Source: Escherichia coli
GTDB taxonomy: Bacteria; Pseudomonadota; Gammaproteobacteria; Enterobacterales; Enterobacteriaceae
Reading direction: 5' to 3' (one strand)
Assembly (NCBI RefSeq): GCF_003018115.1
Contig: NZ_CP027457.1
DNA length: 64,000 nucleotides
Part shown: positions 60,901 to 62,081 of the stretch, piece by piece
How the letters are laid out: each line of letters starts with the position of its first letter
Numbering within the stretch: the first letter of the stretch is position 1
Made by a program: the position numbers

Positions 60901-62081
60901 CGGCGCAAAACGCGCTGCCACCGTGCTCTGGACAAGCTTTTCCAGCAGATAACAATGGCTATGCGCCGCCACCGTGTCGGAAATAGCAACCTCGCTTGAT
61001 GCCTCGCCCATTTAAGGCGATAATTAGCACAAACTTGTGTTTCGCAAATCCAACCCTTCCTCGTCGGGCCTAACGACGCGGAAGGGTTTTTTTATATCGA
61101 CTTTGTAATAGGAGTCCATCCATGAGCACCTTAGGTCATCAATACGATAACTCACTGGTTTCCAACGCCTTTGGTTTTTTACGCCTGCCGATGAACTTCC
61201 AGCCGTATGACAGCGATGCCGACTGGGTGATTACTGGTGTGCCGTTCGATATGGCCACTTCTGGTCGTGCGGGGGGACGCCACGGCCCGGCAGCTATCCG
61301 TCAGGTTTCGACTAACCTGGCCTGGGAACACAACCGCTTCCCGTGGAATTTCGACATGCGCGAGCGTCTGAACGTGGTGGACTGCGGCGATCTGGTATAT
61401 GCCTTCGGCGATGCCCGTGAGATGAGCGAAAAACTGCAGGCACACGCCGAGAAGCTGCTGGCTGCCGGTAAGCGTATGCTCTCCTTCGGTGGTGACCACT
61501 TTGTTACGCTGCCGCTGCTGCGTGCTCATGCGAAGCATTTCGGCAAAATGGCGCTGGTACACTTTGACGCCCACACCGATACCTACGCGAACGGTTGTGA
61601 ATTTGACCACGGCACCATGTTCTATACCGCGCCGAAAGAAGGTCTGATCGACCCGAATCATTCCGTGCAGATTGGTATTCGTACCGAATTTGATAAAGAC
61701 AACGGCTTTACCGTGCTGGACGCCTGCCAGGTGAACGATCGCAGCGTGGATGACGTTATCGCCCAGGTGAAACAGATTGTGGGTGATATGCCGGTTTACC
61801 TGACCTTTGATATTGACTGCCTGGATCCTGCTTTTGCACCAGGCACCGGTACCCCGGTAATTGGCGGCCTGACCTCCGATCGCGCTATTAAACTGGTACG
61901 CGGCCTGAAAGATCTCAACATCGTTGGGATGGACGTAGTGGAAGTGGCTCCGGCATACGATCAGTCGGAAATCACTGCTCTGGCAGCGGCAACGCTGGCG
62001 CTGGAAATGCTGTATATTCAGGCGGCGAAAAAGGGCGAGTAAGCACCAGATGCGATGCGCACGGGTAAAACGTGCCATTAA

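Follow-up and report, generated by a model that had tools for sequence, protein, structure and literature searches.

A conserved hairpin in the speB 5′ leader of Escherichia coli is probably a leaky Rho-independent terminator preceded by the speB promoter

In E. coli, the attenuator of ampC is reportedly the terminator of the frd operon, a relation said to have been described by Jaurin et al. in 1981 and by Grundstrom and Jaurin in 1982. Type I 3′-UTR-derived sRNAs (e.g. DapZ and MicL) arise from an internal promoter situated shortly before a terminator that is shared. For speB, Szumanski and Boyle are said to have described a promoter of its own together with speA-speB co-transcription (1990, 1992), and reportedly found agmatine induction and cAMP repression at speB's own promoter region (1992), no regulator being identified. 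Guanidine riboswitches (ykkC, mini-ykkC and ykkC-III) occur upstream of speB-annotated genes in other phyla (PMC2864571).

Here the region upstream of speB was analysed in a 64,000-nucleotide stretch of E. coli DNA (the window), which was 100% identical to E. coli strain F9792 over the query. On the + strand, speA was followed by a terminator-like hairpin, a lipoprotein gene, a 135-nt gap, speB and three REP-like repeats, with loiP convergent. The features were as follows.

58121–60109, + strand: speA (biosynthetic arginine decarboxylase), from the ORF list and the RefSeq annotation of identical DNA
60126–60169 (hairpin 60126–60159), + strand: speA-proximal terminator-like hairpin and T-rich tail, from a scan match and fold
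60255–60986, + strand: lipoprotein gene, 243 aa, from the ORF list; RefSeq “lipoprotein” or “hypothetical protein”
60996–61024, + strand: predicted speB promoter, from a promoter scan and the homologous K-12 promoter with a mapped transcription start site (TSS)
60996–61001 and 61019–61024, + strand: its −35 hexamer TTGATG and −10 hexamer GATAAT, with a 17-bp spacer
61031–61033, + strand: predicted speB transcription start, by homology to the K-12 TSS, transferred by alignment
61052–61088, + strand: terminator hairpin in the speB 5′ leader, from sequence, fold and covariation
61087–61093, + strand: T7 tract, with the RNA 3′ end expected at 61092 from K-12 Term-seq
61110–61114, + strand: speB Shine-Dalgarno sequence AGGAG, from sequence; GAGG core kept in the alignment
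61122–62042, + strand: speB (agmatinase), 306 aa, from the ORF list, RefSeq and PF00491 on homologues

The true start of speA may lie downstream of the listed TTG. Between speB and loiP (62050–62340), three tandem REP/BIME-like palindromic units were found, with sub-threshold matches to Rfam naRNA4 (RF02564) of 37–53 bits against a gathering score of 59.5. A 338-aa minus-strand ORF (61179–62195) ran antisense to nearly all of speB and is most likely a non-coding shadow ORF; we take it to be the “ORF2” of Szumanski and Boyle, reported as not transcribed.

Structure of the speB-leader hairpin

The hairpin (61052–61088) reads AACCCTTCC-T-CGTCG-GGCCTAA-CGACG-C-GGAAGGGTT and consists of 9 bp, a 1×1 U/C mismatch and 5 bp, capped by a 7-nt loop, GGCCUAA. 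The first two T of the T7 tract pair with AA at the base of the stem, and 28 nt (61094–61121) separate the tract from the speB ATG. The original prediction, a 13-bp GC-rich stem and seven T 28 bp before speB, was essentially right, the stem comprising 12 G/C-rich pairs and two A-U pairs.

The minimum free energy of the hairpin was −24.4 kcal/mol (z −4.61), compared with a mean of −12.9 (sd 2.5) for 200 dinucleotide shuffles, none of which was equally stable (0/200). The hairpin structure thus exceeds chance. On a d'Aubenton-Carafa-type score (approximate formula) it reached 37.7, against 1.8 for the speA-proximal hairpin, for which the fold gave a ΔG of −18.5 and a z of −3.8. A simple consensus terminator scan overlooked the speB-leader hairpin because of its internal U/C mismatch, which is no evidence against a terminator.

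Neither a dispersed repeat nor a known RNA family accounted for the hairpin. A search for REP, ERIC or similar repeat identity gave a single match in the window at ≤3 mismatches, and in each of 5425 E. coli genomes the hairpin had a single location; a repeat family was therefore ruled out. With cmscan (Rfam 15, 59800–62500, E≤1), no family was found over the hairpin, and the covariance models of the guanidine riboswitches (ykkC-III RF01763, mini-ykkC RF01068 and ykkC) gave no match there, ruling out a known RNA family; the only matches in this interval were the REP-like naRNA4 downstream of speB and a weak P31 at 60127–60176. A 43-aa minus-strand ORF (61024–61155) overlapping the hairpin was rejected, as it runs across an indel-rich spacer.

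Promoter, transcription start and RNA 3′ end of speB

In MG1655, SMRT-Cappable-seq gave an operon of b2937 (speB) alone with its TSS at 3083886, as well as speA-speB operons from 3085928/45/46 and yqgB-speA-speB from 3086409 (Yan et al. 2018, PMC6131387, supplementary file 4). The K-12 speB ATG is at 3083797, 89 nt downstream of this TSS, which is an A located 8 nt past GATAAT and about 19 nt ahead of the hairpin, so the hairpin occupies +20 to +56 of the K-12 speB transcript. Position 3083886 was the sole speB-specific start in this dataset. When the K-12 TSS was mapped onto the window by alignment, the order was that of a leader attenuator, with the TSS upstream and the coding start downstream of the terminator.

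The homologous K-12 promoter is TTGAAT-17-GATAAT, compared with TTGATG-17-GATAAT in the window. GATAAT was present in 79 of 82 sequences, and TTGAnn at 17 bp in 77. The distance from the −10 hexamer to the hairpin was 29–30 nt in 63 of 79, and that from the T-run to the ATG 24–45 nt. A promoter between the terminator and the ATG was rejected: the promoter scan found no promoter-like site in this 28-nt interval, which was unconserved, and no K-12 TSS lay there. Judged from sequence and homology, the dedicated speB promoter would be intergenic and ahead of the terminator, between the lipoprotein stop (60986) and the hairpin. The promoter embedded in upstream coding sequence that the original prediction had offered as one possibility was not supported, the promoter-like site at 60996–61024 being intergenic.

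Since the speB promoter precedes the terminator, every mapped speB transcript must read through the hairpin. The K-12 speA-speB and yqgB-speA-speB transcripts necessarily cross it as well (PMC6131387). The expression of speB by read-through, as first proposed, was thus borne out by the published K-12 TSS data, in which the sole speB-specific start is upstream of the hairpin and none lies downstream of it, and by the lack of a promoter-like site after the T-run.

Term-seq of MG1655 recorded an RNA 3′ end at 3083827(−), classed as “orphan” and placed at “−30” relative to speB (Adams et al. 2021, PMC7815308). In the printed sequence, GGAAGGGTTTTTT precedes the end and a T follows it, so the 3′ end falls on the sixth T of the tract, which corresponds to 61092 of the window. 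The proposal that the hairpin is a terminator thus found support in vivo, by an end on the U-tract. This end was entered for M63-glucose only and was absent from the LB OD 0.4 and 2.0 sheets (PMC7815308); its strength or usage may be condition-dependent. Rho scores in the same source cover the LB 0.4 sheet alone, which does not contain the hairpin 3′ end. The K-12 3′ end presumably arises from termination and not from processing. The hairpin combines a stable G/C-rich stem-loop, an adjoining 3′ U-tract and a K-12 in vivo 3′ end, as expected of an intrinsic terminator.

The K-12 TSS (3083886) and 3′ end (3083827) delimit a 60-nt RNA carrying the terminator hairpin and U-tail, so a 60-nt abortive leader RNA is predicted, besides speA 3′ ends. 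High-throughput mapping in K-12 had thus already recorded an identical feature, and its layout, which is ancient, can be seen in those published data. By sequence identity, the same start and stop sites would be used in the window strain.

Some promoters departed from this pattern. In short-allele promoters (L007–L083; e.g. GGCGATAATTCGCC, and GCGGTGATAATCCGC in K-12), the −10 hexamer was centred in a short G/C dyad, GGCGA-TAAT-TCGCC, which could be a candidate repressor site overlapping the −10; the dyad was missing from the long-allele promoter of the window (GGCGATAATTAGCAC). Three loci kept the hairpin without a GATAAT promoter. In Citrobacter gillenii (L012), an element abutting the hairpin, in the region about 70 nt upstream of it, is presumably ERIC/IRU-like; in L049 the speA stop lay about 20 nt before the hairpin, and in L011 TAGCAT replaced GATAAT.

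Conservation of the hairpin and the two spacer forms

The species sample comprised one genome per species, with 80 Enterobacteriaceae loci retrieved with SpeB. The hairpin was found in all 80 (71 without the lipoprotein gene) and in 5425 of 5426 complete E. coli genomes, and every locus examined had a T-run of 6–9 T. It was also found in Salmonella, Edwardsiella and an Apirhabdus/Erwinia contig. In Salmonella enterica (L084, 340–1500), an alpha/beta-hydrolase gene, not speA, was upstream of the speB leader; hairpin and U-tract were kept there and the promoter-like sequence differed (TTCAAT-17-TAAACT). No hairpin was found in Morganella, Providencia or Sodalis, in which the speA-speB gaps were 59 and 13 nt or the genes were unlinked. 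The gaps of 59 nt in Morganella (L085) and 13 nt in Sodalis (L089) contained no comparable terminator, and speA and speB form a tight operon in both.

Among 28 distinct variants of the hairpin, 98.8% of cells kept the pairing, compared with 37–61% in slid controls, and two pairs were compensatory: one was A-U in 12 and U-A in 16 sequences, the other C-G or U-A. Natural E. coli variants (U-A to U-G; T7 to T6) preserved the structure. Loop positions varied, and 1-nt deletions were tolerated there.

The sequence itself was also kept. Between species, the 33-nt hairpin core had a mean pairwise identity of 95.0% (79 loci), whereas the third-codon positions of speB reached 64.2% and the 20 nt directly ahead of the core 42.7%. 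As an internal control, the core was 94.8% identical among nine long-allele genomes and the speA-proximal terminator 68.6%; in the latter, compensatory changes kept the stem while the sequence drifted. Hairpins in the speB-loiP intergenic region were unrelated between genera, terminators downstream of speB turning over completely. The conservation of promoter, spacing, hairpin and U-tract indicated one conserved module attached to speB. A plain terminator leaves the sequence conservation of the stem and of the U/C mismatch unexplained, the stem being kept almost to the degree of amino-acid-determining positions.

The lipoprotein gene (60255–60986) encodes a lipobox, LLAG|C. No Pfam family was found in the 243-aa product, and NCBIfam gave only a sub-threshold match to ActS (15.5 bits against a cutoff of 375). 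The segment was present in 3550 of 5426 complete E. coli genomes, the remainder being K-12-like, and the gene in nine of the 80 species loci, with 66–95% aa identity. Three of these nine were Escherichia-titled (L004–L006: E. albertii, Escherichia sp. MOD1-EC7003 and an E. coli-titled record); the others were three Citrobacter, an Enterobacter sp., Kluyvera georgiana and Klebsiella spallanzanii. The order speA, terminator, lipoprotein gene, promoter, hairpin, speB was found in all eight loci with speA visible; the E. albertii locus (L004) ends before speA and was left out of this count. The speA-proximal terminator-like hairpin was restricted to this lipoprotein-bearing (“long”) allele. Upstream of the gene, all long alleles had a −10-like TACAAT (60217–60222) and a 5′-UTR hairpin, CTGCA..TGCAG (60225–60243).

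K-12 lacks the gene. The long and K-12 forms differ from the speA stop to about position 61045 of the window (936 nt versus 61 nt), and identity begins at 61045: from CAAATCCAACCC onward, the hairpin, T7 tract, 28-nt spacer and speB aligned without differences to those of a K-12 derivative. The hairpin lies outside the indel and predates it.

The long spacer (60110–61045) contained the terminator, the lipoprotein gene and the promoter variant CTTGAAG..TTTAAGGCGATAATTA, and the short spacer (L001, 1611–1671) only the promoter variant CTTGAAC..TTAACGGCGATAATTCGCC. Each form was recognisable in several genera, the long one in Escherichia, Citrobacter, Klebsiella, Kluyvera and Enterobacter. From this distribution, the two forms seem either to be an old polymorphism or to have been exchanged repeatedly by recombination in the conserved flanks, speA on one side and hairpin/speB on the other. 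As the long form occurs across several genera at a constant position, the gene-bearing form is old and probably ancestral in Escherichia, and the K-12 short form derived. The indel exchanges the promoter variant (TTGATG versus TTGAAT, with differing spacers) and separates speA from speB by about 0.9 kb and a second terminator; it may therefore affect speB quantitatively. In E. coli HT-948 (L003, 2177–2578), yqgA, yqgH and tRNA-Phe were upstream of speB instead of speA, and similarity to the window began exactly at about 61045, just ahead of the hairpin; on alignment, the breakpoint of this rearrangement appears to be the same boundary as that of the long/short indel.

Interpretation and comparison with known systems

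The hairpin and T7 tract are probably a leaky Rho-independent terminator within the speB 5′ untranslated leader, acting both as an upstream stop and as an attenuator. Starting about 20 nt downstream of speB's own σ70 promoter, the hairpin would end transcripts of the upstream gene (the lipoprotein gene in the window strain, speA in K-12) and would attenuate those from the speB promoter. The speB mRNA would then be made by polymerases reading through, plus upstream transcription that escaped. The fraction reading through would be essentially constitutive and not regulated. As putrescine from arginine depends on the SpeA/SpeB balance, the element shows how this balance is wired: the terminator would shield speB from upstream transcription, and speB's own promoter would fire through the terminator. 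For annotation, a terminator just before a gene does not mean that the gene has no promoter, since the promoter can precede the terminator.

Read-through could instead be modulated, by a sequence-specific protein or sRNA acting in trans or directly by a cationic metabolite of the pathway (agmatine, putrescine or spermidine) altering the stability of the hairpin. The stem and U/C mismatch are conserved in sequence far beyond structural need while neighbouring terminators drift, the distance between promoter and hairpin is constrained, minimal medium alone gave a call of the 3′ end, and agmatine induction and cAMP repression of the speB promoter region were reportedly seen by Szumanski and Boyle in 1992. 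Against such regulation, no antiterminator pairing was apparent: just about 19–20 poorly conserved nt (43% identity between genera) precede the stem, and minimum free energy folds of the full leader retained the terminator hairpin with no mutually exclusive antiterminator. A pocket for a ligand or protein specific to the loop is disfavoured by the loop's variability and tolerance of deletions, no Rfam family (guanidine riboswitches included) matched, and a conserved leader peptide was not found. Attenuation by a leader peptide was rejected, as the frame ending at the loop UAA (..LPRRA*) had no in-frame start codon in 63 of 82 sequences; the other 19 had one at +4 to +13, without a Shine-Dalgarno sequence. 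The K-12 version of this frame, GTG..UAA, would be translated as MTNPTLPRRA; in the window it starts with TTG. Overall, a regulated attenuator seems rather unlikely. Its more specific form is unlikely: a sequence-specific attenuator, kept almost base for base from an ancestor shared by Enterobacteriaceae, Erwiniaceae and Hafniaceae, in which a dedicated RNA-binding factor sets the efficiency of termination, or agmatine or polyamines do so directly through the stem with its mismatch. If true, a regulated attenuator would tie speB output to the state of the pathway and would explain how agmatine induces speB, as reported, or how polyamines feed back on it.

It is very unlikely that promoter and terminator are chiefly a ~60-nt sRNA gene like those of type I 3′-UTR-derived sRNAs, read-through into speB being secondary. 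The K-12 TSS and 3′ end do bound a 60-nt RNA with a hairpin and U-tail, and the near-consensus promoter is conserved at a fixed spacing from the hairpin; yet the single-stranded 5′ seed region is just about 43% identical between genera, which makes a stand-alone sRNA unlikely. Moreover, no Rfam sRNA family matched, and in three loci the hairpin is kept without the promoter, so that, of the two, the hairpin is better conserved and remains attached to speB. Searches of the literature for an sRNA, a riboswitch or a leader at speB turned up nothing relevant, and in particular no sRNA at the speB leader. The original prediction had also suggested that the lipoprotein gene, if an insertion, may have changed speB transcription; in the corresponding scenario, the insertion put the terminator before speB and rewired its transcription. 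The segment 60110–61045 is indeed absent from K-12-like genomes and brings an extra terminator (60126–60169) and a different promoter variant, but the speB-leader hairpin is outside the indel, base-for-base identical in both forms and present in the 71 of 80 species loci without the gene, and the long form holds the same position in E. albertii, other Escherichia, Citrobacter, Klebsiella, Kluyvera and Enterobacter. The lipoprotein gene neither created nor moved the terminator; the scenario as a whole is extremely unlikely, and a change of speB transcription by an insertion found no support.

Read as a leaky terminator, the speB leader can be set beside several described elements. With speFL and mdtU-mdtJI (PMC7815308, PMC6386406) it shares premature termination in the 5′ leader of polyamine genes of Enterobacteriaceae; those systems use a translated uORF and Rho, whereas the speB leader has a hairpin and U-tract and no conserved uORF. 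Like the guanidine riboswitches, it is a 5′-UTR RNA element of a “speB” gene with an arginase fold and contains ACGA; unlike theirs, its ACGA is within a stem, with no tetraloop or pseudoknot context. As in the DapZ/MicL type, promoter and terminator would give a short RNA (about 60 nt), but the speB leader has no conserved seed and substantial read-through into the downstream gene. Intrinsic or intra-operon partial terminators (e.g. the rplL-rpoB attenuator) likewise have a G/C-rich hairpin, a U-tract, a 3′ end and transcripts continuing past it. In a typical terminator the structure is maintained but the sequence changes (69% for the speA-proximal control), whereas the speB hairpin keeps its sequence (95%). 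The closest analogue would be the frd terminator acting as the ampC attenuator: in both cases, the terminator of an upstream unit is located between the downstream promoter and start codon, where it stops transcripts coming from upstream and also attenuates the downstream gene, and expression is by read-through. The two have no sequence relationship, ampC attenuation is reportedly growth-rate dependent, and the speB hairpin differs from the ampC attenuator in being conserved across several Enterobacterales families.
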